Below, in pieces: positions 1,139 through 61,600 of a stretch of DNA of 64,000 bases. The DNA is from Eledone cirrhosa (lineage: Eukaryota), in NCBI GenBank assembly GCA_964016885.1, contig OZ024741.1, positions 343,108,001-343,172,000 of the forward strand, given 5' to 3'. Numbering within the stretch: the first letter of the stretch is position 1; each line of letters opens with the position of its first letter. The notes under the pieces are model-generated. The model saw only the letters and a program-made list of their open reading frames with translations, ran no database searches and was not told where the DNA came from. The position numbers and the translations under genes were made by a program.

Positions 1139-1179
1139 GTGTCTTTTCCTTTTCTCCACTTTAACTCTTCACCACCAAC

Positions 1180-4100
1180 ATGGCTGTTATAAGAGTTGTA
1201 TGTTTAAATGTGCGCGGCCTGGGGATGTCCTGGAAGCAGGGCAAACTCTTAAATGACCTCAGGTCGCACAGAATGGATGTATTAGCTATTTGCGAGTCCA
1301 GGATCAGAAGCGAGCACCAACTGGCCCCCATCTTCGACGACTTTGACATCTATGCATCTCTCTGTCAGCCGGGGGGTGGAGGTGGGGTTGTCGTTCTGCT
1401 TCGAAAACACCTGGGCTTCGCAACACGGAAGGTACACCTGGACCCGGAGGGTCGATTGGTGGTTCTAGACGTCGGCAGTAGTGAAAGTGGAGCCTTCAGG
1501 CTGGTGGGAACGTATGCCCCATCTGGGACACCGCGACCGGACTTCTTCCAACGTCTAGAGACTTTTCTGGGAACGCCCCGCTCCTTGCTTTTAGTGGAGG
1601 ACTGGAATGGTATCCTGGATGCACATTGGCACTATGTAGGGGCATGTCCCGATAGAGGGGAGTGTAACAGCCTCAAACGGTTAATCGGCCGATTTGACCT
1701 GGCCGATAGATATCGACTAGATTTTCCGACTGTGCCACTGTGGACGTGAACTAATCGTAAAGGAACATCTAGGTCGTACCTAGATAGGATCCTAGTTAAA
1801 ATTAAGGATAGGGACATATTAAACTGTCCACGAATGTTTATGGTTGACTATTCAGATCACAAGTTACTGATCTGCGTAGTCAACCTTGATAGAACCCATA
1901 GACAGAGACCCGGTTACTGGAAGCTAAATTTGTCCTTACCGACAAACAAAGCTTACAGTAAACGGATTAGCACTTTAGTTAAGCAGGGGTTGACGGGGGC
2001 TATTGTCAACAGCAGGTGGTGGGGCTCTCTCAAGAGAGCAATTAGAATAGAATCGATAGGTTTTAGTCAGGAATTAGCATTAGATAGGAATAGAACTGAA
2101 AGGGAATTGATAGATAGAGTAGAAGAGGCGAATAGGAGTGAACCAATTCTTTGACGCGAAGCATGAGGACTGCGTTGTCAGGAGTAAAATACGTGCTCTG
2201 GGTAACGAGGGAGCCAAAGCTGTTAGCTGGGCCCGAGTGACAGAGGCAAAAAGTGGAAACAAGTCCACGATTCGGTCTTTGAAGGACCAGGATGGACGTG
2301 TGATCCTTGAACCTGAGCGGATGTGCGCGGCCTTTCAGGGGCGCTTTGCACGACTGTTCGGGAGGGGCGGCGGGCCGGGGGCGACCATGGATTTCGGTCC
2401 ATACCTCGTCGGTCTGCCGCGGCTCTCGGACGAAGAGGCTAAGTCCTGCGAAAGGTCGATTTCAGCCGCTGAAATAGGGAAGCGCTGAGCCGATGCGGCA
2501 AACGCAAATCTCCGGGTCTCGATGGTCTGCCATACGAACTTTATGTAGCGATGCCGGACTTGTTCTCCGATCTCGTCGAGGCGGTCTACTGCAACTGGCA
2601 ACAGAACGGGAGAATTCCCAGTTCTGTGACCAAGGGCGTAGTCACGCTAGTGAGGAAGGACGAGAACAAGGGGGATGACATAGATAACTTCAGGCCCATA
2701 ACTCTGCTAAATACAGAGTTAAAATTTTGGCCAAGGTGTTAGCGAAGAGGCTGACGCTTGTCGTCGGGAACCTGGTGGGAGCAGCGCAGACATGCGCAAT
2801 CCCGTCCAGGTCCATACACGACAACCCCCACCTCAAGCGATACATCGTAGTGAGGGTAGGGAATGAACCAGGCTTTGGTGGGGCCCTGATCAACTTGGAT
2901 CAATCTAAAGCATTTGATAGGGTTGACCATCGGTACCTGGATGCGGTGCTCGCGGCGGCAGGCTTCGGACCCGTTTTCAGGGGCTGGATTGCTACAATAC
3001 ACAGCAGCGCCACCTGTTCGAGGGTCAAGGTGAACGGCTACCTCTCGGAGCCGTTCCAAATCACGCGATCCATCCGACAGGGATGCCCTCTCTCCTCCCT
3101 TCTGTATGTGCTGGCTCTCGAGCCACTACTGCGGAAGTTGGAGCTGTTACAGGGAACCCCTTGGAACCGGAATTGCGGAAAGCGTTGTCGGTCTACGCCG
3201 ATGGCGTGACAGTAATAGTGTCGTGCGCCTCGGAAATCGGGGAGATCGGCACCTTACTGGAGGAATACTAAAGGTTTATAGGAGCCAAGCTGAACCGGGA
3301 CAAGTCCGTCGGTTTGCAACTTGGAACGTGTAGAGGCAAACCGATGCCCTCCGACGGCGTCGTCGGACGCTGGACAAAGGGACCGGTGAAGCTGCTCGGG
3401 GTCTGGTTCGGACCAGACCTCCAGGTGGAGAAAAACTGGGACGAGGTAATGGGCAGGGTGTTTGCACTCGCCCAGAAGTGGGCCGAGTGCAAACTATCCC
3501 TGAAAGGTCGAGCGGAGGTGGCGAACACTAATAGAGCGTCCGTCATCTACTACCGCTTGACCGTCGTGTCTTGCCCAGCGAAAACGCTCACTAAAATGGA
3601 GCGCGCGCTCTTCCAATTCCTTTGGAAGTAGCGGGCTCCTTTGGTGAGATGATCCATCTGCTGTCAACACCCTTCGAACGGAGGGCTGGGGGTTGCCATG
3701 GCTGACGATGCGTAAACACCGCATTAAGGCTACGCACCTCCAGGTATTCCTCACCGGTCAACCGGTGTGGGCTCCTTTGTGAGGTGAGCCTTTCCGAGAC
3801 TCGTCTCACTCACCGAGCTGCAAACCTGGGTCAAGCAAAGACCGAGAAAAGTGGGGGACTGGCACATTAAATGTGCCCAGGCGCTCACGGCCCTCTGACA
3901 AGCGGATCCGGCAATCAGTGGAGACTCCACTTCAATATTCTATAGAGGGTTGGTGCGCAGCAAGTGCGACCACACTCTCAGAGAAACTCTGGGCATGGAG
4001 GAAGACGAACTAGCCAGTCTGTTCGGTAGGACGTTTGGCCCGGGACCGATGGACCACTTCCAAAAGTCCCTGGCTTGGCAGTGCTAGCGAGGAGCTCTAC

Positions 4101-4576
4101 CCGTTCGGGACAAGCTCTACAGACACGGGGGCCCGGGTAGGGACCCCTCGAAAAATATCTGTCCGAGATGCATGCGGGACGAGGAAACCGTTGCGCACGC
4201 ATTCGTACACTGCCCGGGCGTTGCTGACCTGTGGGGCTATGTGGAACGACTACTGTCGCGGGTGGGACCAATCCGGTTGACCACCGAGTACATTGTCACG
4301 ATCAAACCGCGTCCCCCCTTCAAAAACGAAGGAGAAGCGGTTTTCCTCTGTGTGATAGCTATGGCTAAAGAGACTGTATGGTGGACAAGGTTGAAAGGGC
4401 TCAGGTCAGACACCTTTCTCTCCGGCCAACAACTGGTCCTTTTTTTCAAATACCATTTTAGAAGAAGGATCAGAATGGAGAGAGAGGTGCTGTACCCCAG
4501 CAAGTTTTATGAAAGGTGGGTGAAAGTGGCGAGAATGCCCCGAGTAAATGGGCCTTCTCTCTATATCAGCCTGTAG
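1180..4576 (+). pseudogene. ORF2 (APE endonuclease + reverse transcriptase) of the Tx1-type LINE, multiple stops and frameshifts
   Basis: CLNVRGL, ICES, YAPS, SDH, GYWKLN, NFRPITLLN, LDQSKAFDRVDH, RQGCPLS, YADGVT (YADD decayed), CPRC..EETVAHAFVHCP, spread over several frames. Confidence 0.92.
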
Positions 4577-6520: not shown

Positions 6521-6656
6521 TAATACTATATAAAAGAAATTAAAAGTATAAATGTATGCGATATGTGTGTTCAACGCTCAATGGGTTTCAGTTTCAATAC
6601 ATGTCTCATAATAAACACACTAAACATTTACAGCAGTGAAATATATTTAAGTATAT

Positions 6657-6846
6657 AAGGGTGGTGGATTGGCAGTATCGGTAGAGAGTCGGACGCCATG
6701 CTTTCCAGCATAGTTACGTCCCTTTACGGTCTGAGTTCAAATCCCGTCGAGGTTAACTTTGCCTTTCATCCTTACGGGGTCGATAAAATAAAGTACCAGT
6801 AATGTACTGGGTAATTGCTGGCCTTGTGCCAATAGTAGAAACAATC
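6657..6846 (+). mobile_element. tRNA-derived SINE (Meta-domain-like), full copy
   Basis: A-box-like TGGCAGTATCGG, B-box GAGTTCAAATCC, central GCCTTTCATCCTTACGGGGTCGATAAAATAAAGTACCAG, tail GCTGGCCTTGTGCC..TAGAAACAAT; more than 20 homologues in the window. Confidence 0.9.
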
Positions 6847-6937
6847 ATGAATTATATGCATATTAATACATATATGTATAAATATATTTATACATACTCT
6901 CATTACCTACATAAATGTATTACATACATAAATATAT

Positions 6938-10210: not shown

Positions 10211-13200
10211 TTCTTCTGGTTTTATAATTTCACAAATTTGTTCCCAATAAAGAGAGAATCGGTTTGTAACATAGACACAAGACTCTCTCATTGGAATTTA
10301 CACAACATCAACTAGGTAGATATGTATGTATGTATGCATGTATGTGTAGATATGGATGTTATTGTATGTGTGGATGTGGATGTTTTGAGTTGGATGTGTG
10401 CATGTGTATATGCTTTGCATTTGTACATGTGTATATGCAGTTATTAGATGCAAAATGTTTGGAATGTTTTACATATTTTTACTGTTCCATTAATGGATTG
10501 TTCTTGTAATTTCCCAACTAGTCGTGTTCTTTCTGTTCCTGTGAAGCCTAGCTTCTCAAGATTTGTATTGGGGCAGTTACTAACATACCCCAGTGCCCCA
10601 ATAATCACAGGCATAAATCTGAAGGTGTAACCAGGGTGGAGTATCTGCCGATTTCTCATCAGTTCTGCATAAATATTCTCCTTTTCGCTAATCTTTGATA
10701 TTATATTGGCATCTGCTGGACAGCTATTATCCACTACTGTGCATGTTTTCTTCTCCCCATACCATATCATAATATCTAGTCTGTTATGCCTGCATTTTAT
10801 TGGGGTTTTTACTGGAATATTCCACCAGTACTCTTTCATATTATGTACATGGATGTCTTCCACATTGCTGTAGCTTTAAATGTGTTTATTATCGGGGCTA
10901 TCTTTTTTACGAACTGCATTGTACAGTGTTTTGGCCACTACATCATGCCTCATAGGTAGATAGTACCGCGTGGACATCTTTGGACAGCTGCTGATGACAA
11001 GGGTGATATCTTCGATGTTAGTTCTGCAGAGTCTGCACTTGTTATGACATCTAGGTGTTTTGTCTGCATCCCTATCTCTTTTGTGAATCAGGTATTTCGT
11101 GTTAATCTCCTGTTCTTGGATTGCAAAAGCGTATCCTTCAAAGTGGGAGCCAATATAGCGGTTGTTGGTCCAAGATAGACTACTTTCCTTATCTATATTA
11201 CTCTCACTCTGGAGCTTCCTGGCAACATATCCATGCAGATTTTTTGCTGATAAGCATGCAGTTTTTCATTCATGGATTCACTGCGATACTGCTGAGCAAC
11301 CTCCCTGGGTGTGAGTTTTTTATTATCACACAGGGAATATCTCTCGAGGAGTTCCTTCCCAACTCTCATGATCTTATCTGTTTCATGCAGATAGACTTGC
11401 TCGAGAGACGGGCTCCTACGCTTCGAGGTTCGTAGATGTTGTCGGAGAGATATGATGCGATATTCAAATGCTGTCTGGACTGATGTTAGGCCTCTGCCTC
11501 CCTGCTTACGTTTCAAGTAAAGGCGGTCTATGTCACTGTTGATGTGGAAGTTTCCGGTGTTGTTTAGTATTTTTCCAGTTCCAACATCAACTGCTCGGAT
11601 TTCGTCTATCGTCTAATTGAGTATTCCAAACGTTGGTGTTAGGACAGGCACAGCAAACACATTGTGAGCCAGTGTTTCGTTTTGCGTAGAGAGTTCCGAT
11701 GACCAGATCTTTCTTAATCGGGTGTAGTATTCCATGGTTACGCGTTCCTTATTACAGATACCATTATAGGATATGTTCTCATCTATCCCCATGTATCTGT
11801 AGCAGTCCTCATCAGATATCGGTGAAACAGTTAGGCCATTGATGACAATGTTGCTAGATTGGGTTGTTGTTTTTCCCCGCTTTACAGTCACGTATGAGCA
11901 TTTATCTTGGCCAAACTCAATTCCTATATCCTTTGAGAACGTTGTAACCTGGTCAAGATTTTTCTTCATCCCTTCCATGTTCTTGGCATAGAGTTTCAGA
12001 TCGTCCACAAAGAAATTATGGGTTAGGTTCGTATTTCTCTTCTCCTGTGAGCCAATGATGTATCCCTCACATTTCTTGAGCAGAAAGGACAAGGGGTTTA
12101 ATGACAAGATGAATCATATCACAGAGAGACTGTCCCCCTGAAATATACCCCTGCGATATTTTATTTTATCAGTGAAAATAGAGTCCTTCCTCTTTGTCTT
12201 TAACCTTAGGATAGTAGCCCAAGAAGAAGACAGCCTCTCTATGGCTCTGACAATAATATCTGGAACTTTAGCAAGTTGGAGGGCCTCTATCATCCAAGAG
12301 TGAGGAACAGAATCGAAAGCTTTCCTGTAGTCCAGCCAGACTGTAGCCATATTCCTCCTAAGTTGTCGCACCTCCGACATCGCAGTTTTGTTGATTAGGA
12401 GTTGTTCAGCACATTCCCAAACCCCTTTCTTTCTAGCTGCTTGTTCATCTGTGATGATGTTATTATTTTCACAGTAATCTTGGAGGAATAGGTTCAGGAA
12501 GGCTTTATACATCTTATACATCAGGTTCTGGCATGCAATGGGTCGGTAGTTTTTTGCCAAGTGGGTGTCTTTGTTCTTGGGGACCAGTGATGTTTGTGCT
12601 AATGTCAACCATTCTGGTATAAGTGTATCTCCCTTAAGAACTTGTTGGTAGTGGTCAGTAAGATAGCTCCGATAGAATATCAGTTTTTCGTACCAGTAGC
12701 CGACAATCATGTCTCTTCCTGGTGTTTTCTTATCTTGGAGTTTTCCTATCACAGTCTCAACGGTACCCTCACTTATTTCGTATGTTTTTGTTGTAGTGTA
12801 GGAGCAATAGTTTTTTCGGATTTCTCTTAGCCGCACTGCATCTTGCTTGAAATTCTTCTTTTCACACCATATTTTGCTCCAAAAGGAATCTATGTCTTTC
12901 TTGGATGGGGCCTCAGTGACACGTAATATTTTGTTCTTCATATCTCTAAAGACTGATGTTTGGTTTCGTCTGAATCTTTTATTAGGCACTTTTCTCTCAT
13001 CTACCTTCTTCAGGTATCGGCGTTTTTCGCTAACAGCCCTCAATTCTTGTTTGAGGGTGATCAGCTTATATTGAAGAGTTCTGGTTCTACTGTTACCAAA
13101 CATCATCTCTATTTTATTTTTCACTCTTTGTTGGTGAGGAGTGAGGTTTTTTTGTGTTTGTTTGCATGTAAGGAGCATTGTCACATGTCCTATGATTTTT

Positions 13201-13462
13201 CGTAGGTCAGCAATCTTTTTTTCTATTTTAGTTATATATGATGGTATTTTTGGTGGTGTTTTGTTCTTGTTAATTTCTCTGCTATCACCAAGATAATGCT
13301 TCACTGTCGTTGCTAAGGCATATAAACAGGCGTTGATTTGCCAAAATTATTGGGGTTTTTATCCGTCGTAAATATTCATCCCCTATTTCGTCAATAACAC
13401 GTAATATTTCATTTTTTTTTTTTTTTTTTATTAAACATTGTCGTTTTAATACGTTCAGCAAG
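10211..13462 (-). mobile_element. R4/Dong-type RLE non-LTR retrotransposon, 5'-truncated and decayed
   Basis: RT motifs NYRPIAC, EQLLINK, WLDYRKAFDSVPHSW, RGIFQGDSLS, FVDDLKLY, KRKQGGRGL; CRLC..SSCPK..YLPMRHD; RLE motif RHNRLDI; (TACA)n on both sides. Confidence 0.92.
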
Positions 13463-13537: not shown

Positions 13538-13987
13538 GGGCAAAGGAGCTCTTAAGAGTCAATGGCCATCCAAAATCACCGGGAGAGATGACCCCTTAGC
13601 CTTTCTCAAGGCAGAATTCTAGGAGAAGGAAAACTCCGATGTAACACCTGCAACTCTGATGGTATCCAATGATGTTGACTTGTTCTTCTTTTTGGTAAAT
13701 ATCATCTTGGTTAAGAGAGTGGGATTGGCTTTGTGCAGTGCCTTTGCTCACAATAAAAGCTTCACGGCACAGGCATTGCTTTATATCTGGAGATCTCTCT
13801 GCACTTGTCGTCACATGGTTCCATGGGCCCAGCACTATGTGTCAATAATTGTCACAAGTGTAGTGTTTGTACCAGAGTTTTCAAGTCGCTGGCTGGACTA
13901 AAATGTCACTCGTTCAGCGCATCGGTAGGAGTTCTCCTACATGGATATAAAGTAGTGTCCGTACTAAAAAACGAGTTGGCAGCCACC
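13536..13987 (+). mobile_element. 608-bp RTE-derived element, 5'-truncated copy
   Basis: Near-identical to the 3' three-quarters of 54489-55096; lies inside (TATG)n. Confidence 0.9.
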
Positions 13988-16988: not shown

Positions 16989-17054
16989 AGGTTTGGCAAA
17001 TAAGAAAAAGTTTCAAAATAAATTTTAAAAGATTCAGTGTACTCACTATGGTTA

Positions 17055-17139
17055 CCTTTACCGAATCGGTTTCGAGTCTCAAAAATAAATGGACAGTCCT
17101 TGCGGCCTTCCATTGAAAAGATAAACTCTCGTCAGAAGG
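17055..17139 (-). ncRNA. Type I hammerhead ribozyme motif
   Basis: Minus strand: CCTT-CTGACGA-GAGTTT...AGACTC-GAAA-CCG att CGG-TA-AAGG; intact core, stems I/II/III pair, GUA cleavage triplet. Confidence 0.85.
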
Positions 17140-17542
17140 GTCTTTTCACTCGGAGAATATCAAAATTCCCGAGTTCAAATTACGAACTGGCGCTATTCAA
17201 AATTGTACCCGAGATGAGAATGAATGATGTGGAAGCAATTCTGTCCAGTGCCGTGTGTAAAGATAGAAGCAGAGGCAGGGAGGTCAGTCTACTACCACTA
17301 TAAATAGCAGCAGTCAGAACGACCAAATTTTATCTCGACCAAGAGGAGCAATAATAATAATAAAGTATATATCACTACACGCAAAAAGCGTCTAGAGACA
17401 CATGTATTGTCCAACCATATGCCAATGTGGTTCAATGGCAGGTTAATAAATTAACAAGCCAGAACATATATAATCAAGGTTTAGCAAATAAGAAAAAGTT
17501 TCAAAATAAATTTTAAAAGATTCACTGTACTCACTATGGTTA

Positions 17543-17627
17543 CCTTTACCGAATCGGTTTCGAGTCTCAAACATAAATGGACAGTCCTTGCGGCCTTCCA
17601 TTGAAAAGATAAACTCTCGTCAGAAGG
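17543..17627 (-). ncRNA. Type I hammerhead ribozyme motif (second copy)
   Basis: Same motif, 488 nt from the first. Confidence 0.85.
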
Positions 17628-17652
17628 GTCTTTTCACTCGGAGAATATAAAA

Positions 17653-17869: not shown

Positions 17870-17875
<6 letters not shown>

Positions 17876-19778
17876 ATCCACCAACTCCTCTCCTTCGTTG
17901 TGGATAATGCACTCTTCAATTTCCTCGGCCACACGTACAAACAAATCTCTGTGCTACCTATGGGCTCTAGTCTGTCCGGCATACTTGCGATCTCGTACAT
18001 GGACCACCTGGAACGCAAGGCACTCAATACCTGCCAACCCAACGCCGTCGCCTTCTACTCCAGATACGTTGATGATATCCTGATACTTACTTCTTTCCGG
18101 GAGATGGCGAATGAAATTCACCAAATCTTCAACGATACTGACCATCACGTCGATTTCACCATCGAACACCCAGGAGAAGACGGGTCACTCGCCCTCCTCG
18201 ACTTCCGTATCAACATCTCGGAAGAAGGAGACATAAACACCACCTTCTACCGCAAAGCAGCGTGCAAGGACTTATTTGTGCATTATAACTCAGCCCTCCC
18301 CAACAACGCTAAGAGAGGCTATGTGCTAAATGAACTGACACGGATCACTAACAGATGCAGCGACCCGATGGGTGGTCTCACCCATACCACGCAATTCCGT
18401 AATCTACTCAGATCTAATGGTTATCCCAAGCGACTGATTAACGGAATTAGAGACCCCAGACCCAATAGACAGACACCCACTAGAAAATAGAAAATTAAAT
18501 AATAGCAGGTGCTTCTTTAAAATCCCCCACCTGAGTGAATATACCACGAACGCCATCCGCAGGGCCATACGGACGGAGGGACTTGACATACATTTGGCCC
18601 ACACAGGACCTTCGCTGCGAAGATGCCTCTCCAACAAACCCGACGAGTCGGATGGGACGTGTTCCCTCAGCAACTGCCCGATACGGGGGGCAGATTGCCT
18701 ACGCACCTATGTCGTATATAAGATTCAATGCGATAAATGTAACAAGTTTTACATAGGTAGCACCATCCGACCCCTACATGTTCGTATCAAGGAACATATC
18801 AACACCAACGCATCTTCCTTCCGTAAACACATCCTTAAATGCGGAAACCCACAGGGTAGACCCTTGGTCACAGTCCTAGCGACTGAACGCAGCATCGGAT
18901 CCTTAAGGATAAAGGAAGCACTTGTTATTAAGAACCTCAGACCCCCACTTAACAACCGGGCTGAGATAAATGAGCTGACATGGCTAACTTAACCATAGTG
19001 ACCATTCACAGCCTACGGCCTGCTATCTTCACACACACGCACGTATATGCATACCCATACGCATACACACACACATCTATATTTATACACGCACACATGT
19101 TTTTACAACCTACCACCTTTCACACCCTTTGATTTCCAGCTTCTACAGCCCACTATCTTTCACACACAAACGCACTCACACATATACACACACAGTTACA
19201 CACACATGTATACCCATACGCTTACACACACACATCTATATTTATACACGCACACATGTTTTACAACCTACCACCTTTCACACCCTTTGATTTCCAGCTC
19301 CTACAGCCCACTATCTTTCACACACACACACACTCACACATATACACACTTACACTTATACACACACAGTTACACACACATATATATTTACACACACATA
19401 TCTTACGGCTTTCACACGCTAGCGCACCCTCTTGATTTAACCCATTTGGTCAGTAGCTTTTGCCACAACCTATCACGCGCACGCGCATTCTTTCCCTCGT
19501 TTAAATTTTAAATAATTTTCTCCCCATAACGGCATTCCTGTCTTAACGACATCACAACTTTCTCCGCTTGGCCTGTTCCCCCCCTTTTGGAACTTTTCCC
19601 CCGTTGATGGGCGTGAGCCCGAAATATTGGGATTAAATCTCTACTATGGTAACCCTTCTACCTTTGTTTTGTTTTCATCTTTGTCTCTCTCAATTTTCAC
19701 TTTCACCTTTTTTCCTATCTATCTTTCACTTCCTACCTCGAGATTTCCCTCTGCATTGTTGTGGCTTTCTTAAATACG

Positions 19779-19780
<2 letters not shown>
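17870..19780 (+). mobile_element. Penelope-like element, 5'-truncated (RT + GIY-YIG), disrupted
   Basis: [33 protein letters not shown] (17900-18490); GIY-YIG VVYKIQCDKCNKFYIGSTIRPLHVRIKEH..KEAL..PPLN (18594-18992); one stop/frameshift; (TA)n flanks; degenerate HHR at 19597-19632. Confidence 0.93.
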
Positions 19781-19837
<57 letters not shown>

Positions 19838-20352
19838 CCTTATCGAAACCTCTTAGGATTTTAGTCTTCACAATTATTTTTACTATATCTATCTATAATA
19901 TATAAATATCCTTCGCTTTGTGAAATCATTTCTTGAAACGAATAAAGTAATACTTTAGGATGGTCACGCTGTGAATAAAGTTAACATGCCATCAATAGAA
20001 TACATTAGAGGAATAACAAGCTCGGTACGCACTAGCGACCGATGACCATATAAGGACAGATAAGAATTTTAAACCAGGAAGTTAAGAAGTGAAAAAGTGA
20101 CTGGTGGTGGACACATTAAGTACACATAAAGCATTTAGGCTGAATGGAAGGAGAAGAAAAGGATGTAAACTCGCATATCTCGCGTGATGTCGAAAAAGAG
20201 TCGGGCGCCGTCATCTTCATTGTACCCTGAGCTGATCGATATTAAAACAATTGTAATATGCCAATAAAATTTGTACTTATGCTGCAACACTGACTTCGAT
20301 TCTTCTTAATCTCCTCCCCCCTTCCCCTCCCCCCTTCCCCTTCTCTCTGTCG

Positions 20353-21136
<784 letters not shown>

Positions 21137-21200
21137 GTATATATATATATATATTATTCAGAATATTAATAAATGAAGACATTCACATAATGAAAATATG

Positions 21201-21263
21201 TTTTATTATATATATTTCGAAGGTACTGTGGTGTTTTTTTTAGTACGTCCTCGTCAGATAAAA
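21201..21263 (-). ncRNA. Minimal type I HHR motif (same family as 33424 and 57698)
   Basis: Minus: TTTTAT-CTGACGA-GGAC GTACT..AGTAC CTTC-GAAA-T ATAT A-TA-ATAAAA. Confidence 0.7.
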
Positions 21264-21501
21264 TACATGAATTGATGTGACATACCTCAACGGTCTTTGA
21301 TGGTTGAATTCCAGTATTGGCAGTGATTTATTACAATAAATCTCAACATTTATATACCACAAATAATAACATGAATGAAGAAGAGGATGTGGAGTGAGAT
21401 ATAGGTATAAGGAGGGGTGAGTATGATAAAATGCAAGAAGAAAATAAATACATACATACATAACTATTTAGATGCGTAAATATACGTGTTAGGGAAGAAA
21501 A

Positions 21502-28670: not shown

Positions 28671-31384
28671 AGTAGCAGTCTACTACAAGGAACAATTCAT
28701 ATTCTATAACTCTTTCTCACTTCCTTCCTCTGACTCTCTATTTTTCTCTGGAAGTAATCGGCTGTGTTCAGACCTGGAGAGGAGATGAACTGTGCCAAGT
28801 TTTAAAATATCCAAGAAACCCCGTATATCAATATGGTGCTACTACGACTTCATCAGGTGTTAGGGATCCGTGCATGCATGAAACTAAATGCGTAGTGTTT
28901 GAATTTGTCTGTTTCGAAGCTGATTCCTCTCTATGATGGATATACTTCATAGAAGGTCCCATCATATTCACAATATTGCAGAAATACTTAACTATCAAAT
29001 GCTCTCAGACATTTAGCTGCAATTAAGCGCCAACAACTCCATGACCGCTTTCCCTTCCTGCACTGCTTTGATATATTTCAATTTCTTCTGGACAATTTGA
29101 TAAGATGGGAAAATTGTTCAGACTGCTGGAAACAAACAGATGGAAACGTTGATGAATATTCAAGATGAGGAAAATAGTATAAAAACAAAAAATAAAAATA
29201 AAACAAAACAAAATAAAATAACATACATCTATTAATGTTGTTGTTGCAGTTTCCAAGTTGACAACTGTTGCTGATGTGATGACTGTTGATTATCCGCCAT
29301 TGTATATGGCAGTTTTATCCCTGGTTGGTTTTTTTTTTTTATGTTGTTAACTTGTTGGTACAAGTGTTATAACAATTCGTGTTCGAAGTTTGTCCTTTTA
29401 TTTTTATTGCAGTTGTCTCTTGCCATTGCTTTCTGTAAAGGCAAAAATCCTTAAAAAAGGTCCTTGTCCGTATAACCATATGTAACTTCCTTTCTTCCAC
29501 AAGAACACTTGTATTTTTTAGTAGTGTATCGTAGTCGTTTTTGAGGTCGCCAGTCTTAGTCTTTTCTATCGTTATTACCACTAGCAGAAAACAACCCTTA
29601 CGGTGGTTTTCTGCTAGCATGTGTAGTGTACATATTGATATTATACGAATATATATATATATTTATGCATGTAGATATGATAGGTCAAATAAAATCGTAA
29701 TTGACAATATGCACAGAAATTGAAGAGAGACTGTGTTACACTCTCTCCTGTAATTAGTAAAGTAATCCATGATTATTTACAAAAGACGATATTATATATA
29801 AACTGCATTACGACAAAATTTTATGAAAACGAAAACAGAGAAAATTAGCGACGGAAATACCTTATATAATGATACAAATATATGAACGTTTATATAAGCG
29901 CCGTGATAATATATCATAAGCAGAAGTATTGACATTTGAAAATTTTATAGAAGTGAATCGTGAAATAAGCAATAAAATTATTTATATCTAATCAAGTGTT
30001 ACGAAATTTAGTAGATAAATTATGTAATATTCATTCATTATTTATTCAAAGTAATCCAACTTAATTTACTAACGGGATAAAAAAATATATTTAGTCCCGC
30101 AATCCTCTCTTTTTTATATTATGATAAGAAGTGCTCTGATGAACTTTTTCTTTTACTTCCAGATCACTTTGTACTATCTCGTCTTACTTGAAACTTGCAG
30201 GATCTTCATTCCGGATGCTGTTGTGGTTCTACGAATAAGTATTTATATGGTCGTAGTTTTTTTCTTCGAACTGCTAGACTTTGAAACTCTCTTCCATCTC
30301 GTTGTTTTCCTACTTCTTTTGAGCGGAACTCTTTCAAGTTCAACGCAAATCCATTCTTTTTTCTTAATTTCTCCTTCAAAATCCCTTACCCTAAGTTGCT
30401 TCAAACCTTGCTTGTGACTTCCCCCCCAAAAATAAAAAAAACTAACCATTCAATTATATATATGATTCAGTCAATGTTGATGTTTTACTGTTTTCCCGTT
30501 TTCATATGTTTATTTCATCATTCGTTTTTCTGCTGAACCCCAGAAAGGCGTCCCAGCCATGCCCACCTTGTCTTATTTCATACATATTGAATCAAGAACA
30601 CTGTCATACTATATGTCATTCTGTTATGTTTTTTGTAAAAGACGCGATTTGTGGGAAAGCTCACTGTTATTTCTTGCAGATTGACAGACCAGCTAGCGAA
30701 TCTTTTTATTGGTGTTCTTTATAGAGTGTGGAGTATCTACATGCATTGCTGCCATTGTTGCTATGGTTGCTCTTCCATATACTGTTATTATTGTTATTGT
30801 TGTTGTTATTTACACTCTTGTTTGCTATTGCTGTTATTTACTAACAGTCTCTTATATAACAAACCCATGATCAAATGTTTGCCAACGCCGACCTCCCTGA
30901 CATTTACGTTATTCAATATCTCTTTCCTATATTGGCACAGCAATATGAAGCTTGAATGCTATTTTTAGCATGTAAAACGACCACGTAGAGGCTCTCCTTC
31001 CGTTCCTGTAGCTATTGTTGTATGTATAATTTAGTGTACGTATTGTTACTGAAGTTAGTCTTCCCAGAGGAAAAGAAAAATGGCAGCTTTTCTAATTGTA
31101 GTAGTTTTTTTCCTATGCCTGTATCTGCTCCCATATACTTGGCAGATTATAAGGATATTGTTCTGCGACAAACGACAAAGGAAGAAGTTCAGTTCAAATA
31201 TCTTTCACCTAAAGGCGTAATATTGTACATCTCCATTCCATCATAATCTCTGACTACATACTACGTTCACCATAAATGTAATGAAACAATAACAAATAAA
31301 TTGTCTTCAACAGAAAAATACTGTACTTCCGTTACAATCAGATCAGCACTATGAATATCTGACTAAACTAGCAGCCAATAATAA

Positions 31385-31782
31385 TAATTGTTTCTACGCT
31401 TGGCATAAGGCCAGCAATGTGAGGGAAGGGGAAAATCGACTAAATCGACACCAGTGTGTTACTGGTACTTTATTTTATCCCCTCGTAAGAGTGAACGGCA
31501 AAGCCAACCCCGGTGGGATTTTACTCAGAACGAAAAGGGCAATAACTATATGCCACGAAGCCTGTTTTCCAAGGCTCTACCGATGCTGTCAACCCACTAC
31601 CTCTAATAATAATAATAATAATAATAATAATTGGTTTCTGATTTAGGCACCATGACAACAATTTGAAGGGTAGGGGAAAGTCGATTCAATCGACCCCAGT
31701 GCGTGACTGGTACTTTATTTTATCGACCCCGTAAGGATGAAAGGCAAAGCTAACATCGGCGAGATTTGAACTCTGAACGTAA
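31385..31782 (-). mobile_element. Two SINE copies (31385-31600 and 31630-31782)
   Basis: Reverse complement of the SINE consensus. Confidence 0.8.
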
Positions 31783-33084: not shown

Positions 33085-33093
<9 letters not shown>

Positions 33094-33534
33094 GTTTAAC
33101 AAGGTTCAATGAATTCATCAATGAATAAAGTTTCACAATAGATTAGAAGCACTCTACAGTTGGTTTTCTGGAGTTATTAATATTACTTCAAAATTTTAAT
33201 AAATATAGACATTCATGTGATCAAATATATTTTATTATTTCAGAGGTACTGAGCTATTTCAACAGTACGTCCTCATCAGATAAAATAAGTTGATGCCTGA
33301 CATACCTTGACTATGTTGATGGTTATAATTTAGTCATGGCAGTGATTAGTTTTTTGTCATAACTAATCACTGCCTTGACTAAATTATAACCATCAACATA
33401 GTCAAGGTATGTCAGGCATCAACTTATTTAATCTGATGAGGACGTACTGTTGAAATAGCTCAGTACCTCTGAAATATGTATAATAAAATATATTTGATCA
33501 CATGAATGTCTATATTTATTAATATTTTGAAGTA

Positions 33535-33540
<6 letters not shown>
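33085..33540. mobile_element. Fold-back HHR element (inverted arms 33180-33351 / 33361-33538)
   Basis: ~175-bp inverted repeat with 9-bp spacer, between (TA)n arrays; homologous to 21150-21340. Confidence 0.85.
33424..33490 (+). ncRNA. Minimal type I HHR motif
   Basis: TATTTAAT-CTGATGA-GGAC GTACTG..CAGTAC CTCT-GAAA-T ATGT A-TA-ATAAAATA. Confidence 0.65.
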
Positions 33541-33569
<29 letters not shown>

Positions 33570-34049
33570 TATATACATCAGTGCAATATTGACGGACGTA
33601 AGAATGAATATTAAATATTGAAGTAGAGTGTAAATATTCCTTATTATGGCTAAGTGTTCCATCTCATTAAGGGACTCTGTATTTTGATGAAGATTAGGCC
33701 ACTCGACTGCTGAGCCTTTATAGACATGATAAAAATAACAGCTAAATATCACTCAAATCGCGCCTTATCGTTTACAAAATAACATGGCTTAATGTTGTCC
33801 ACGATGGACAAACACAGAATAGTGATTGCTAAAATACAGCCCCAATACTGTCGTGCCATAGACCTAGACCCCATCCCTAACCCCCCCCCCATTCTTCTGT
33901 GACCCTAGAGCCCTTGTCTTTCCCTTCCTTTTCCGTTTTGATAACCACAAAAGACACTTGAATTTTTTACAATAAAGGATTGGTCTTTAAATACATTACA
34001 TAATAAGTTTAATGGATATCAAATATGTAACAACAGTAATTTATAACTC

Positions 34050-34590
34050 TTTCAAATATTGGCACAAGGCCAGTAATTTAGGGAAGTGTAAATTCGATTA
34101 TATCATCACCAGTACATGATTGCTACTTTATTTTATCGATCTCGGATGAATGAAATGCAAAGTTAAATTCGTCGGGATTGATCTCGGAACGTAGAAAGTT
34201 GTAATTAAATACCGAAAAGCATTTTGTCCGACGTTCTACCGATATTATGAATCCACAGTCCCTTGAATACTAATTGATAATAGTTTCTACTATAGGCACA
34301 AGGAGGGCAATTTTGTAGGAAGGGATAGTCGATTAAATCGACCGCAGTGTATTACTAATACTTTATTTTATCGACCCCGTATGGATGAAAGGCAGAGTTA
34401 ACCTCGGCGGGATTTGAACTCAGACCGGAAAGGGCCGTAACTCTATGCTGCAAGATACTATTTAATAATGGTTTCTACTATAGGCACAATGCCAGCAATT
34501 TGGGAGGGAGGGGAAAGTCGATTAAATCGACCCTAGTGCGACCCCGTAAAGATGAAAGGCAAAGTTAACCTCGGCGGGATTTGAACTCAA
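34050..34590 (-). mobile_element. Three tandem SINE copies
   Basis: Reverse complement of the SINE consensus at ~34050, ~34280 and ~34468. Confidence 0.8.
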
Positions 34591-35036: not shown

Positions 35037-35128
35037 ACATATCCGAGGAGCTTCCGTTTCCAGAGACAGGTTCAATCATTGTTAGATCGTTCCTCGAGCT
35101 GATCGACAGTGAAACATATGTAATATGT
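35037..35128 (+). ncRNA. Minimal type I HHR motif (U4C core variant)
   Basis: ACATAT-CCGAGGA-GCT...AGT-GAAA-C ATAT G-TA-ATATGT; perfect 6-bp stem I, palindromic loop III. Confidence 0.65.
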
Positions 35129-35246
35129 AATTAAATATGTATATGATGCAACACTCATTCTTTGTTCCCTTATATATTAATATTATTGATACTCGGTTCC
35201 TCAAGAGCATCAATACATACACACACATATATATATATATTTATGT

Positions 35247-36097: not shown

Positions 36098-36160
36098 TAT
36101 ATACGTACACACACACATATCCATAACACACACACAGAGTTATATATATATATATATATA

Positions 36161-36752
36161 TATTGTTATACTTGGGGAGGGTCATATTGTTGTAATAATA
36201 TTGCCAGAATTAATAACGGAACACACTCACTGTCTGGTTGGTTTTCGCTTCTGTATCTTTTATATCAGTTAATTTATTCGGTCCTCAATGTTTACCATTG
36301 AGTGACCAACGGTCAAAAATACAGATATAATATAGACACAAACACATATATATAGTTTAACAAAGTTCTTTCGTTGCACATCTGCAAAATCGTCAGTGGT
36401 GCTATTATGTTTCCTCCTGCTGTTTGTATGTCTACGCCATCTTTATTTAATCTGGAAACATAATAACACCACTGATGATGTTGCAGATGTGCAACGAAAG
36501 AACTTTGTTAGAGTATATATATGTGTTTGTGTCTATATTATATCTGTATTTTTTACCGTTTGTCAGTCAATGGTAAAATTGAGGACCGAATAAATTAACT
36601 GATATAAAAGATACAGAAGCGAAAACCAAACAAACAGTGAGTGTGTTCTGTTATCAATTCTGGCAATATTATTACAACAATATGACCCTCCCCAAGTATA
36701 ACAATATTTGTTTCGACACACGATTTCATATCAAAAACCTCGCAAAACTAGT
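36161..36752. mobile_element. Fold-back Penelope pLTR-like element (arms 36161-36414 / 36454-36706)
   Basis: ~250-bp inverted repeat; HHR core CTGATGA-T GTTGCA gatg TGCAAC-GAAA-GAAC-TT; terminus TGACCCTCCC.AAGTATAACAAT shared with the Penelope end at ~44970. Confidence 0.85.
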
Positions 36753-36764
36753 ATATATATATAT

Positions 36765-36952
36765 ATTAATATAGAAAAGATTCTACAAGACTAGAACTGT
36801 TTCATTCGTGAGAAATCATCAGGAAGAATAATGATTTCTCACGAATGAAACAGTTCTAGTCCTGTAGAAGGCTTATTCTAAATTAAAAAATTTATACTCT
36901 GGTATATATTGAGCAACTTACTTACTGTGGTTACTCACGATTGAACCCGGAA

Positions 36953-43119: not shown

Positions 43120-43418
43120 GTCAGGTCACCAGTTGGTGCTACTGGTAACATGTATCCCAGTACAACCTGTCTTATGGTCGGGTCGTTGGCGACTAAACTG
43201 GCAACCCCACCAAGGTTTCTTGGTGAGGAGGGTGACTTTGGACATCCTGCAGGACTAAAAACAAAACCTGTCAAAGGGCAAAGGAGCTCTTAAGAGTCAA
43301 TGGCCATCCAAAATCACCGGGAGAGATGACCCCTTAGCTTTTGTCAAGGCAGAATTTTAGGAGAAGGAAAACGCTGTAATAACACCTGCAACCCTAATGA
43401 TATCCAATGATGTTGACT

Positions 43419-43419
<1 letters not shown>
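43120..43419 (+). mobile_element. 608-bp RTE-derived element, 5' half, interrupted by the Penelope element
   Basis: Matches 55707-56006 and stops at the Penelope inverted arm. Confidence 0.88.
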
Positions 43420-45070
<1,651 letters not shown>

Positions 45071-45356
45071 TTATAGATAACGAGGAATCAGTGATGCATC
45101 AAAACACAATTTATTAACATATTACATATATTTCTCCGACGATCAGCTCAAGGTAGGATCTATTACAGATCGAACCTGACTCTGCATTCGCAGATCCTGC
45201 CTTGAGCTGATCGTCAGAGAAACATATGTAATATGTTAATAAATTGTGCTTTGATGCATCACTGATTCCTCGTTATCTATAATAATATACTCTGCTCTGC
45301 GCGAGTATCGAGTACTCAAACGGCATGCCGCCTATGGCCGCATTTATTGCAACCAT

Positions 45357-49521: not shown

Positions 49522-50259
49522 TCTATCTATATCTAGATATTGTAATTTAGTTGTTGATACTGAATTTTTCCCGAATTACAATACATCCATGAGCAGAGGC
49601 TAGACGGTGGATAGAAATCTATATTGTGGAATAACATAACTTTACATTTCCTGTTTAAGCTGTACTGTAAAAGCAAACGGCTTTTACACTGCTGTTATTT
49701 TAAAGACTAAGGTCAGGGGTTCTTCTAAATTTATTGTTCAATGTATTTATTTGATTACAGAATTCGTTCTTCACCGAGTTTATCAAATTATATTTCGGGT
49801 TTCTTGTGAAATGTTTGTTGAACTCCCCCAGATAGCTCACGTTTAGTTACACAAAATTAACCCCAATAACGTAGTTAAAGTCAGTTACAGTTACAAAAAG
49901 AATGTCGATGAATGATAATCAGCAATTTATCCTTGTATATATATATATGTGTGTGTGTCTAAGACTGTGTATGTATAAGCATCCACACACATATATATAT
50001 ATATATGTATATGCGCATATATATATGTATGTATATAAATATATATATATATATATATAACGAGGCGTGTATGTTCGCGCGTGAGTACGTTCCTTCGACT
50101 TCTCATTTCTTCAATTTCTTCAGCTGTTGATGAAATACACAGCGTTTCGTAAAGACTTGTTATAAATAACAGTCGACCACTTGTAGGCTAATATAAAATA
50201 TCCCGAACGTACAAGAGGAACGAAGAGAATGAATTTGAGAACAATCACAAAAAGAAAAC

Positions 50260-51160
50260 AAATATCTTAGTGAGGCAGTGAAAATATCTTTTCGGAAAAG
50301 AATAAGGTACAACAAATCTTACTGATGCAGTGAAAATATCTCTTGGGGAAAAAAATAGGGCATAAACAGAAATCTTACTGAGGCAGTGAAAATATCTCAT
50401 GTGAAAAGAATAGGTTGTAAACAAATCTTAGTGAAGCAGTGAAAATATCTCTTGGGAAAAGAATAAGGTACAAAAATATCTTACTGAGGCAGTGAAAATA
50501 TCTCTTGGGAAATGAATAAGGTACAATATATCTTACTGAGGCAGTGAAAATATCTCTTGGGGGAAAAAATAGGGTATAAACAAATGTTACTGAGGCAGTG
50601 AAAATATCACTTGGCGAAAGATTAAGGTACAAACAAATCTTAGTGAGGCTGTGAAAATATCTCTTGGGAAAAGCATAAAGTAGAAACACAAATCTTAGTG
50701 AGGCAGTGAAAATATCTCTAGGGAAAAGAATAAAGTACAATATATCTTAGTGAGGCAGTGAAAATATCTCCCGGGAAAAGAATAAGGTACAAAAAATCTT
50801 ACTGAGGCAGTGAAAATATCTCTTGGGAAAAGAATTAGGTACAAAACATCTTAGTGGGGCAGTGAAAATATCTCATGGCAAATAAATAAGCTGTAAGCAA
50901 ATCTTAGAGAGGCAGTGAAATTATCTCTTGGGAAAAGAATAAGTTGTAAACAAATCTTACTGAGGCAGTGAACATATCTCATGGAAAATGAATAAGGTAC
51001 AAAAATATCTTACTGAGGCAGTGAAAATATCTCATGGGAAATTAATAAGGTACACAAAATCTTACTGAGGCAGTGAAAATATCACTTGGCGAAAGATTAA
51101 GGTACAAACAAATCTTAGTGAAGCAGTGAAAATATCTCTTGGGAAATAAATTAGGTCCAA
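50260..51160. repeat. Minisatellite, about 17 copies of a ~52-bp unit
   Basis: AATCTTA(C/G)TGAGGCAGTGAAAATATCTCTTGGGAAAAGAATAAGGTAC repeated in tandem. Confidence 0.95.
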
Positions 51161-51394
51161 ACCAGAAAATACCTACGGTTTATCTATTACCTAGGCACAG
51201 GTGAGATTGAAATGGCAAATCTTAATTCGTCTTATCTAGGTATTTATTCTATGATTGTGCCGTACAACAAATTAGAAATTTGTTGGGGATTATGAGGCAT
51301 GTCCGTATTAATTAGATACACAGAAAGAAGGAATAAGTTAGAATATACGTATATAAATATATACTATAGAATATATTCAGTCCTCCAAATATAA

Positions 51395-54488: not shown

Positions 54489-55096
54489 GTCAGATCACCA
54501 GTTGATGCTACTGGTAACATGTATCCCAGTACAACCTGTCTCATGGTCGGGTCGTTGGCGACTAAACTGGCAACCCCACCAAGGTTTCTTGGTGAGGAGG
54601 GTGGCTTTGGACATCCTGCAGGACTAAAAACAAAACCTGTCAAAAGGCAAAGGGGCTCTTAAGAGTCAATAGCCATCCAAAATCACCGGGAGAGATGACC
54701 CCTTAGCCTTTGTCAAGGCAGAATTCTAGGAGAAGGAAAACTCTGATATAACACCTGCAACCCTGATGGTATCCAATGATGTTGACTTGTTCTTCTTTTT
54801 GGTAAATATCATCTTGGTTAAGAGAGTGGGACTGGCTTTGTGCAGTGCCTTTGCTCACTATAAAAGCTTCACAGCACAGGCATTGCTTTATATCTGGAGA
54901 TCTCTCTGCACTTGTCGTCACATGGCACCATGGGCCCAGCACTATGTGTCAATAATTGTCACAAGTGTAGTGTTTGTACCAGAGTTTTCAAGTCGCTGGC
55001 TGGACTAAAAAGTCACATTCGTTCAGCGCATTGGTAGGGGTTCTCCTACATGGATATAAAGTAGTGGCTGTACTCGAAAACGAGTTGGCAGCCACC
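54489..55096 (+). mobile_element. 608-bp bipartite RTE-derived non-autonomous element, full copy
   Basis: 5'-UTR-like head joined to an RTE C-terminal zinc-finger remnant (HKCSVCTRVFKSLAGLKSHIRSAHW*) and short 3' UTR; TATG-rich flanks. Confidence 0.85.
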
Positions 55097-55706: not shown

Positions 55707-56314
55707 GTCAGGTCACCAGTTGGTGCTACTGGTAACATGTATCCCAGTACAAACTGTCTCATGGTCGGGTCATTGGCGACTAAACTGGCAACCCCACCAA
55801 GGTTTCTTGGTGAGGAGGGTGACTTTGGACATCCTGCAGGACTAAAAACAAAACCTGTCAAAGGGCAAAGGAGCTCTTAAGAGTCAATGGCCATCCAAAA
55901 TCACCGGGAGAGATGACCCCTTAGCCTTTGTCAAGGCAGAATTCTAGGAGAAGGAAAACTCTGATATAACACCTGCAACCCTGATGGTATCCAATGATGT
56001 TGACTTGTTCTTCTTTTTGGTAAATATCATCTTGGTTAAGAGAGTGGGACTGGCTTTGTGCAGTGCCTTTGCTCACTATAAAAGCTTCACAGCACAGGCA
56101 TTGCTTTATATCTGGAGATCTCTCTGCACTTGTCATCACATGGTACCATGGGCCCAGCACTATGTGTCAATTATTGTCACAAGCGTAGTCTTTGTACCAG
56201 ATTTTTCAAGTCGCTGGCTGGACTAAAAAGTCACACTTGTTCAGCGCATCAGTAGGGGTTCTCCTACATGTATATAAAGTAGTGGCCGTACTCTAAAACG
56301 AGTTGGCAGCCACC
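55707..56314 (+). mobile_element. 608-bp bipartite RTE-derived element, full copy
   Basis: Near-identical to 54489-55096. Confidence 0.85.
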
Positions 56315-57697: not shown

Positions 57698-57763
57698 TAT
57701 TTTATCTGATGAAAGCGCACCATAATTTGCCTTGGTTGCCTTTGAAACATGTATAATAGAATA
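57698..57763 (+). ncRNA. HHR motif, partly degenerate (family of 21201 and 33424)
   Basis: TATTTTAT-CTGATGA-AAG..CTTT-GAAA-CATGTA-TA-ATAGAATA. Confidence 0.55.
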
Positions 57764-59618: not shown

Positions 59619-59876
59619 GGAAAAAATGAAACGAAATTTCATTTCCCACTCTTAGTACGGCTGTTACTTAAATATAAGTATGAACACGTACATACATATA
59701 TGTATACAGACGTACAGTAGTATGTATATATACATACATGCACACATATATATATGTACGTATGGATTCACCGAACATTTATTATAATGCCCGGTGTGTT
59801 TGTAAACAAACATCCCGTTTTAAAGCCGTAGTGTCTAGCAACCATCGTTGCTCGTTTGTTCAACACTGACAACGGA

Positions 59877-59919
59877 ACGCTGTACTAGTTTCAAGCTTAT
59901 TAGCTATCGTCAGCAACGT
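59877..59919 (-). ncRNA. Minimal type I HHR motif
   Basis: Minus: ACGTTG-CTGACGA-T AGCT aata AGCT T-GAAA-CTAG-TA-CAGCGT. Confidence 0.82.
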
Positions 59920-60264
59920 ATACCTTCCTGCCAGATTGTTGAACGTATATACTTACCTTATGCATATTAACGGCTGAGTAGCCCAATTTGCATATCGAGT
60001 GGGTTAATCGGCCGGGTGCACCGAAAAGGATAAACGGAAACAATGAAACGAAATTTCATTTCCCACTCTTAGTACGTCTGTTACTTAAATATAAGTATGT
60101 TCACGTACATACATATATGTATACAGACGTACAGTAGTATATATACATACATGCACACATATATATATGTACGTATGGATTCACCGAACATTTATTATAT
60201 GGCTACTCAGCCGTTAATATGCATAAGGTAAGTATATACGTTCAACAATCTGGCAGGAAGGTAT

Positions 60265-60307
60265 ACGTTGCTGACGATAGCTAATAAGATTGAAACTAGT
60301 ACAGCGT
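60265..60307 (+). ncRNA. Minimal type I HHR motif (one stem II mismatch)
   Basis: ACGTTG-CTGACGA-TAGCT aata AGATT-GAAA-CTAG-TA-CAGCGT. Confidence 0.7.
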
Positions 60308-60508
60308 TCCATTGTCAGTGTTGAACAAACGAGCAACGATGGTTGCTAGACACTACGGCTTAATATGGGATGTTTGTTTACAAACACACCGAGCATTATA
60401 ATAAATGTTCGGTGAATCCATACGTACATATATATATGTGTGCATGTATGTATATATATATGCATACTACTGTATGTCTGTATACATATATGTATGTACG
60501 TGGACATA

Positions 60509-60558
<50 letters not shown>

Positions 60559-60562
60559 ATAT

Positions 60563-61210
60563 ATAAAATTAAAAAAGTGGAGAGTAACATGGTCAACAGT
60601 ACAAAAAAGGAGATTTATTTACAGTCTAACAATTGATTCACTGATAGAGTTGTCTAAAAATCGCTAAACACTGAAAGTAGTGCCACTCAATTTAAAATAC
60701 ATGTCATCTGCATCATATCCTCAGAGTCTAAGAGAAAATATAAATATATGCGTAACCGGCAAATTTATAAATTCAAATTGCCACATCAATAATAATATTA
60801 ATAATAAATATATAGAGAGAAAAAAAGGATAGATATAGTAAAGATAGAAAGGAAGGGAAGAAGAAAGACGAAAGAGAAAATATAAATATATGCGTAATGG
60901 GCAAATTTACAAATTCAAGTTTGAATTTGTAAATTGATTTGCATTTTAAATTGAATGGCACTACTTTCAGTGTTTAGCGGCTTTTAGACAACTCTATCAG
61001 TGAAACAATTGTTAGACTGTAAATAAATCTCCGTTTTTGTACTGTTGACCATGTTATTCTCCACTTTTTCAATTTTATTACTCCAAGTTAAACTTACATA
61101 GGAATACAAGGGAAGTCACCCACGTAAACCTCTTGTTGAGTCATACAACGCTGTACGCTAAAACTATCCACAACCTCTAATCGGATTACCTGTAACGATA
61201 TCTTGTTATC
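60563..61210. mobile_element. Fold-back element (arms 60563-60698 / 60943-61078) with degenerate HHR
   Basis: ~135-bp inverted repeat; GAAA-CAATTG-TT-AGAC in the right arm; CTGAGGA on the minus strand at ~60720. Confidence 0.75.

Positions 61211-61600
<390 letters not shown>

Follow-up and report, generated by a model that had tools for sequence, protein, structure and literature searches.

Positions 36160–36752 of the window, by which we mean the entire 64,000-nt stretch analysed here, hold a palindrome whose two arms (36160–36414 and 36454–36707) align over 255 columns with 12 mismatches and one gap (94.9% identity) around a loop of 39 nt. The ~250-bp-arm palindrome of the original prediction is thus real. 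The window is AT-rich, eukaryote-like and laden with repeats, with many (TA)n tracts and broken retroelements, a repeat landscape reminiscent of octopus genomes, and a (TA)n microsatellite served as the insertion site, from which no target duplication could be distinguished. The unit reads as two 5′-truncated copies of a Penelope-like element (PLE) end repeat (pLTR) placed head to head, with both 3′ ends pointing outward into (TA)n. By arm alignment, the left arm and the loop form the longer copy (36160–36453, minus strand), which ends straight in the target tract at 36141–36160 without a tail. The right arm is the shorter, inverted copy (36454–36707, plus strand), and its conserved terminus (36682–36707, plus strand) is followed by a one-sided 44-nt tail (36708–36752, plus strand) preceding (TA)n. 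The earlier description of both elements as running into (TA)n consequently fits the left arm and the PLE discussed below, but not the right arm, which bears the intact hammerhead quoted in that description. Long inverted arms in a TA context would also suit a foldback DNA transposon or MITE that had captured a PLE end in its terminal inverted repeats. We rejected this very improbable origin because the unit is asymmetric, with its tail on one side, and shows no duplication separable from (TA)n; moreover, the arms are pLTR-like over their whole length.

A coding remnant was not detected in the palindrome beyond one chance-level match (15 aa, E 0.046, against 150 proteins), which upholds its description as non-coding. 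A repeat search of the whole window was swamped by (TA)n and was replaced by masked self-BLAST, in which longer copies of the family, with or without an ORF, as the original prediction had suggested looking for, did not appear in the window. Head-to-tail repeats of the unit are likewise absent, the window containing one copy, and the 24-mer of its terminus had 0 matches in a prokaryotic genome collection, as expected. Directly after the unit, and sharing its (TA)n tract, lies a separate small hairpin (36756–36896) with 60 extra nt on the right and a degenerate hammerhead at 36822 (minus strand).

Each arm of the palindrome bears one outward-facing hammerhead, the two being on opposite strands. 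The minimal type I hammerhead of the right arm (36468–36509, plus strand; motif at 36472; predicted cut after 36505) combines CUGAUGA, an extra U at 9b, a 6-bp stem II closed by G10.1–C11.1, GAAA, a 2-bp stem III and a CUU cut triplet; its stem I is weak (2 bp, a mismatch, 1 bp), and in the predicted fold the pair probabilities are 0.92–1.0 for stem II and 0.0 for stem I. Its counterpart in the left arm (36358–36400, minus strand; motif at 36396) is damaged: it reads CTGACGA, the G10.1–C11.1 pair is lost through a G>T change at 36388, and stem II is unformed in the predicted fold (pair probabilities up to 0.01). The 3′ pLTR of the PLE carries a minimal type I hammerhead (44773–44815, plus strand; motif at 44777; predicted cut after 44811) with a 4-bp stem I, a 6-bp stem II and the layout of the 36472 motif. 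The hallmarks of the minimal type I class (CUGANGA, 9b insertion, G10.1–C11.1, GAAA, UH) are all present in the right arm and the PLE, and the left arm departs from them at G10.1–C11.1.

How specific is this shared layout? The pattern CTGANGA-N-GTNNCAG-loop-TGNNAC-GAAA-GAAC-TT occurs at two sites in the window, 36472 and 44777 (both plus strand), and in none of 100 shuffles, although it was written from these very motifs and hence measures specificity rather than discovery. Stem II reads GTTGCA/TGCAAC in the palindrome and GTCACA/TGTGAC in the PLE, so that two pairs are altered on both sides (U-A to C-G and G-C to A-U), as is one pair of stem I; the common layout and the compensatory stem II changes noted at the outset are thereby borne out, with the proviso that 16 of 500 shuffles reach such changes and that the three rows compared are really two lineages. 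Across the window, our descriptor found 13 hammerhead motifs, five of which belong to the strict class, where 100 shuffles gave 0.12 on average and 1 at most. At a threshold of E 10, the 18 and 1 Rfam matches from local scans of the two loci included no hammerhead family, and the 150 matches listed of 382 in a whole-window scan were nearly all microsatellite-driven miRNA matches under gathering scores.

Folding predictions separate the two loci. The catalytic fold of the PLE hammerhead is at the minimum (−10.6 versus an MFE of −10.7 kcal/mol), whereas those of the palindrome hammerheads, taken alone, lie 7 and 10 kcal/mol above it. A read-through RNA of the palindrome is predicted to collapse into one extended hairpin (about −393 to −398 kcal/mol) that would bury the ribozymes, the probability of stem II being 0.0 on both strands. 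Since its ribozymes occupy opposite strands, and since it is a single unit without head-to-tail repeats, the palindrome was rejected as a retrozyme. Stem III, AGAACU, is not a true palindrome, its two end pairs enclosing A-A mismatches (self-duplex 0.0 kcal/mol, compared with −5.6 to −9.4 kcal/mol for three other helix III motifs in the window), and dimer activity of the palindrome and PLE hammerheads is therefore uncertain. The palindrome locus is a dead end, unable to mobilise itself or to act as a retrozyme.

The PLE itself (43418–44973) had been regarded as coding, which needs correction: it is a 5′-truncated, frameshifted relic that lacks the reverse transcriptase (RT) core and has a 5′ hairpin of its own, and so does not represent machinery. 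Its inverted 5′ copy, derived from the ORF region past the RT core, occupies 43418–43772 (minus strand) including a 14-nt loop, through which the copied part (43418–43758) joins the sense copy at a GTAC microhomology. The sense strand then continues with an ORF remnant (43773–44571, plus strand) comprising the post-RT region, a CX4CxxC linker and a GIY-YIG endonuclease, and the terminus (44948–44973, plus strand) passes directly into (TA)n. Gaps near 43859 and 44003 and a frame change near 44160–44190 interrupt this copy, which covers about residues 771–1038 of a 1047-aa homologue (tblastn); an RT motif was absent from all six frames. The GIY-YIG domain is encoded at 44161–44571 (Pfam PF01541, E 6.9e-5). 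An exhaustive protein search with this fragment returned 1776 relatives with E values no higher than 0.001, the best at 56%, and word-indexed searches (117 and 2 candidates) returned nothing at that threshold. Pfam assigned no family to 9 of 10 homologues and a sub-cutoff GIY-YIG to the tenth; their RT was recognised by its motifs and by tblastn similarity to the RVT_1-positive frame at 17888–18433. The linker, CIDKKCITC, precedes the C-terminal GIY-YIG and fits the CX2-5CxxC motif that has been named for Neptune and Nematis (Craig et al. 2021, PMC8557442). On this motif, which Nematis shares, rather than on an RT tree, the relic would be of Neptune type. It is built like the palindrome, but its truncation lies further upstream.

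Several repeats accompany this relic. The outer end of its inverted copy adjoins a copy (43124–43419) of a young dispersed repeat, 92–97% identical between copies and found at (TA)n-like tracts (also at 54495–55092, 55711–56310 and 13539–13983), which resembles an RTE-type element; the 43124 copy is cut where the inverted arm of the PLE starts. A second, different PLE (17870–19780, plus strand), with RT (RVT_1) and GIY-YIG split by a stop, ends in (TA)n and is preceded by a 176-bp direct repeat (16989–17164 and 17477–17652) that contains a long-stem-II hammerhead on the minus strand. The window further includes two broken LINE-type retroelements (632–4576 and 10444–13346, the latter with RVT_1 at E 1.5e-10), an abundant 190-bp SINE-like repeat (6650–6850 and about 20 more copies, with tandem clusters at 31380–31780 and 34040–34590) and a tandem array at 50256–51168 with a unit of about 53–54 bp.

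Palindrome and PLE relic correspond in three colinear blocks, namely the hammerhead, the 3′ terminus and, weakly, an upstream 9-mer that is confined to these two loci and carries little weight when taken alone. The terminus, TGACCCTCCC.AAGTATAACAAT, matches at 24 of 25 nt; at up to three mismatches it has three sites in the window (36162–36184, minus strand; 36683–36705 and 44949–44971, plus strand) and none in 100 shuffles; elsewhere, among about 128,000 positions, the score never rises above 19/25. BLASTN aligned the terminus at 28/30 (E 4e-7) and the hammerhead block at 78% over 51 columns (E 2e-4). From hammerhead to end, the global alignment scored 149 compared with 52.9 ± 10.4 for shuffled sequences, none of 1000 shuffles reaching this value. 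When the 36472 motif was scored against 10 other hammerhead-like motifs, its own left arm came first (79), then 44777 (51), with the next at 33.5. The alignment that the original prediction called for is thus significant overall, its signal being concentrated in the cis-acting ends. Both regions are AT-rich and the core letters of a hammerhead are obligatory, which could in principle yield a chance resemblance or convergence; yet letters outside the core (stem II ends, loop II, GAAC, flanks) and the terminus agree in the same order, and the shuffling results led us to reject such an origin. The same verdict applies to an assembly fold-back, given that the arms differ at 13 columns, not expected when a read folds back on itself. 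We consider chance and artefact together extremely improbable.

Since 44777 is the best match to the 36472 motif after its own left arm, and since the terminus is shared as well, common descent of the palindrome arms and the PLE pLTR is supported. Do they belong to one family? The middle stretch between hammerhead and terminus (130–170 nt), considered alone, is not significant locally (335/1000 shuffles) and marginal globally (6/1000); not being locally alignable, it argues for two related families rather than one. Lying 7 kb apart and having their ends in common, the two loci might suggest that the palindrome derives from the very family at 43418–44973, as a solo pLTR or a local duplication. 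However, the arms are 95% alike while their middle cannot be aligned to the PLE, the distance from cut site to terminus is 200–201 nt in the palindrome versus 160 nt in the PLE, and under neutral decay the ends would have eroded like the rest, with no maintenance of compensatory pairs. We gave this origin very little credence and rejected it, for the unalignable middle and the differing spacing.

The ends are likely alike between the families because they comprise cis-acting parts, that is, the ribozyme and the RT start region together with the probable ORF start, while the spacer drifts. The claim that orphan hammerhead elements are tied to Penelope machinery is therefore sustained as regards the descent of these arms from a PLE pLTR, with hammerhead and terminus in common, and overstated as regards machinery: the relic is frameshifted and without RT core, the middle points to a different family, and shared ends leave autonomy unsaid. 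The other hammerhead elements of the window have neither a 36472-type hammerhead nor the shared terminus, and their tie to Penelope is only via similar architecture.

Another head-to-head hairpin lies at 33180–33538; both its arms carry long-stem-II hammerheads, the left one also a 93-nt tail (33087–33179). A single copy related to it occupies 21158–21340 (motif at 21257, minus strand), and a more distant motif is at 57706 (plus strand). The 45070–45283 hairpin family (relatives at 35061–35183 and 20225–20293) has GAAA-CATATG-TA on the outward strand and an 81-nt tail on the right arm, with no canonical CUGANGA where it would be expected. Nested inverted repeats at 59766–61599 hold three minimal hammerheads (59913, minus; 60271, plus; 61571, minus) whose helix III is the palindrome ACUAGU, surrounding an inner 136-bp inverted pair (60566–61075). 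Finally, the 9-mer AACTTTATT recurs at 33132, 21101, 20467 and 19982 (all minus strand), always with CA after it, each site near a repeat end or in a tail; two of these sites fall within a 39-nt direct repeat (20460 and 21094), after half a hammerhead without GAAA.

The 44-nt extension of the right arm is found neither at the left arm nor at the PLE and, taken alone, has no match above background. A third, degenerate relative (19966–19921, minus strand) nonetheless shows the terminus at 19/25 followed by the tail in register at 16/21 (binomial 6e-6 for a fixed register; 46-nt local score 37, 0 of 2000 shuffles), from which we conclude that the tail is encoded by the element rather than being flank. 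This relative spans 19829–19990 on the minus strand, with ~90 nt more to (TA)n, and no hammerhead was found upstream of it. Read from its ATG, the terminus at 36682–36707 (ATG ACC CTC CCC AAG TAT AAC AAT) gives MTLPKYNN; this frame then meets no stop codon in the tail, an outcome with a chance expectation of 38%. The sole difference between the termini of palindrome and PLE is a synonymous third position in this frame, and both families have an A at −3. The ATG might mark the first codons of the element ORF, although the putative N-terminal peptide had no match among 150 homologues (best BLOSUM score 32).

How did the palindrome arise? In our preferred reading, to which we assign a probability of roughly 0.7, 36160–36752 is one dead insertion of a Neptune-type PLE from a family related to, but distinct from, that of 43418–44973, the source being most likely a coding sister. 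By analogy with PLE biology, an RT–GIY-YIG protein would have nicked the (TA)n tract, reverse transcription would have stopped just upstream of the hammerhead, and the inverted second copy would have arisen in the same event, the two ends of the palindrome corresponding to two RT start sites, at the end of the pLTR and at the end of the tail. The source RNA would most likely have been that of the ordinary coding sister family, only its last 300 nt being copied. This parent is inferred, the window containing no longer copy of the family. The palindrome as an autonomous PLE was rejected, in view of its being non-coding beside a frameshifted neighbour without RT core.

Alternatively, and closest to what was originally proposed, the palindrome might belong to a family that derives from a pLTR and is non-autonomous, either SINE-like or representing the monomer form of a non-LTR retrozyme. 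Such a family would be copied in trans by a Neptune-type PLE and would keep hammerhead and terminus for that purpose. Conserved ends around a diverged middle are equally expected for such a passenger; the palindrome has no coding remnant beyond the chance-level match, and non-autonomous PLE derivatives as well as trans-mobilisation by pLTRs have been published. However, all of the 293 nt present correspond to sequence that does not code in the PLE either, and truncation alone would account for the missing ORF; there are no head-to-tail repeats and just one copy in the window, and the in-frame ATG kept at the terminus speaks, weakly, in the same direction. By sequence, the shared ends fit a truncated copy of an autonomous sister family and a passenger alike and do not say which. 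We favour the truncated autonomous sister because truncation and inversion are shown next door, the neighbouring PLE being truncated with the same kind of 5′ hairpin and thus demonstrating both for this clade within the window, and because no retrozyme hallmark is seen; the passenger is an unlikely, though not far-fetched, origin.

The hairpins of the window may share a polarity. Among the seven examined, five have one arm at a microsatellite and the other with 44–93 extra nt, the exceptions being the hairpin of the PLE relic, whose arm ends lie more than 300 nt from any (TA)n, and a non-conforming hairpin of 16 bp. Two of the five asymmetric hairpins (35247 and 45070) show no hammerhead by our descriptor and resemble PLEs in architecture alone. 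In all three hairpins in which polarity can be read (36160, 45070 and, weakly, 33180), it is the shorter arm that bears the tail, a result that is not significant (two-sided p 0.25), two further hairpins having no relative to compare. Correspondingly, the loop belongs to the tail-less arm at 36160 (27 versus 0 identities), at 45070 (19 versus 4) and weakly at 33180 (6 versus 0; scores 40 versus 38). In the first case, the palindrome loop aligns to the PLE region upstream of the hammerhead only on the minus reading; this match is weak alone (39 of 2000 shuffles locally, and not significant semi-globally). A second arm copied from the first cDNA cannot hold element sequence that is absent there, and a tail on the short arm therefore argues against simple fold-back of that cDNA. 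The hairpins might record an unresolved step of PLE integration. Our boldest reading, which we offer tentatively and regard as doubtful, is twin priming, in which nicks in both target strands would each be extended from a different one of the two RT start sites and the resulting cDNAs joined by microhomology, as at the GTAC of the PLE relic junction. Twin priming would be consistent with the both-strand activity and the predicted dimer of Poseidon_Ac; the polarity could also be accounted for by self-priming of an antisense RNA (PMC3846280) or by one tail having been trimmed afterwards.

Each of the following is a published PLE feature: end repeats placed head to head, a tail at one end only, insertion at (TA)n and pairs of hammerheads on opposite strands. 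Also published is the link between PLE end repeats and orphan or opposite-strand hammerheads (PMC4209133; bioRxiv 10.64898/2026.07.22.740005). Most PLE copies are 5′-truncated, and they are often accompanied by a neighbouring inverted copy and a one-sided tail (PMC8557442). The palindrome agrees with the inverted pLTRs of EN+ PLEs (PMC3846280; PMC8557442) in its inverted, 5′-truncated adjacent copy, head-to-head junction, one-end tail and (TA)n target, but both its copies are cut back to the pLTR, without ORF body, and its 44-nt tail is slightly longer than the published 30–40 nt. The pLTR of Adineta Pen2a contains the first 12 codons, a number that the tail raises to 22 (PMC3846280); the corresponding figures for the palindrome would be 8–9 and about 23, if our ATG reading is right. 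With the minimal type I hammerheads of metazoan PLEs (PMC4209133), it shares the extra nucleotide between 9 and 10.1, G10.1–C11.1, a long helix II, a short helix I and a tiny helix III. Compared with the usual dimer-forming examples, however, helix III is only partly self-complementary here, and the palindrome copies have a weak helix I. Opposite-strand hammerhead pairs have been described by Cervera and de la Pena (2014, PMC4209133), who found them ~100–700 bp apart and ascribed most scattered motifs to truncated PLEs.

Animal non-LTR retrozymes (PMC7229834; bioRxiv 10.64898/2026.07.22.740005) are likewise non-coding, with a unit of about 300 nt, a type I hammerhead and a relation to pLTRs, from which they have been argued to derive (Li, Clavereau and Pollet, bioRxiv 10.64898/2026.07.22.740005). 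In contrast to the head-to-head pair with opposite-strand minimal ribozymes seen here, they are built of units repeated head to tail and contain two or more ribozymes on the same strand. Mechanistic detail is available for Poseidon_Ac of Anolis (Frangieh et al. 2024, PMC11167929): a PLE protein that nicks AT-rich DNA, and RT that starts at either of two sites bounding the tail. The same two start sites defining a tail, AT-rich targets and a hammerhead upstream of the start sites would apply to the palindrome, but Poseidon_Ac represents a different PLE clade, and its ORF starts inside the hammerhead, compared with a candidate ATG about 175 nt past the cut site of the palindrome. Neither the palindrome family nor its tail polarity was found in a literature search covering mostly open-access main texts, passages of PMC12602865 and PMC13282606 likewise contributing nothing on hammerheads, and the family is probably unnamed.

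As a discovery, the palindrome thus matters little, being a clear local example of a published pattern. For the genome it comes from, it suggests that many short palindromes in (TA)n tracts probably represent PLE debris and could be mistaken for MITEs or hairpins of miRNA type. The way in which PLEs come to have inverted ends has been named as an open question (Craig et al. 2021, PMC8557442), and in a genome this rich in hairpins, tail polarity and junction microhomology can be counted over thousands of copies, which could discriminate between models of inverted-end formation. If the tail polarity seen here were general, it would exclude simple fold-back of the first cDNA and favour twin priming or the antisense self-priming of Arkhipova et al.
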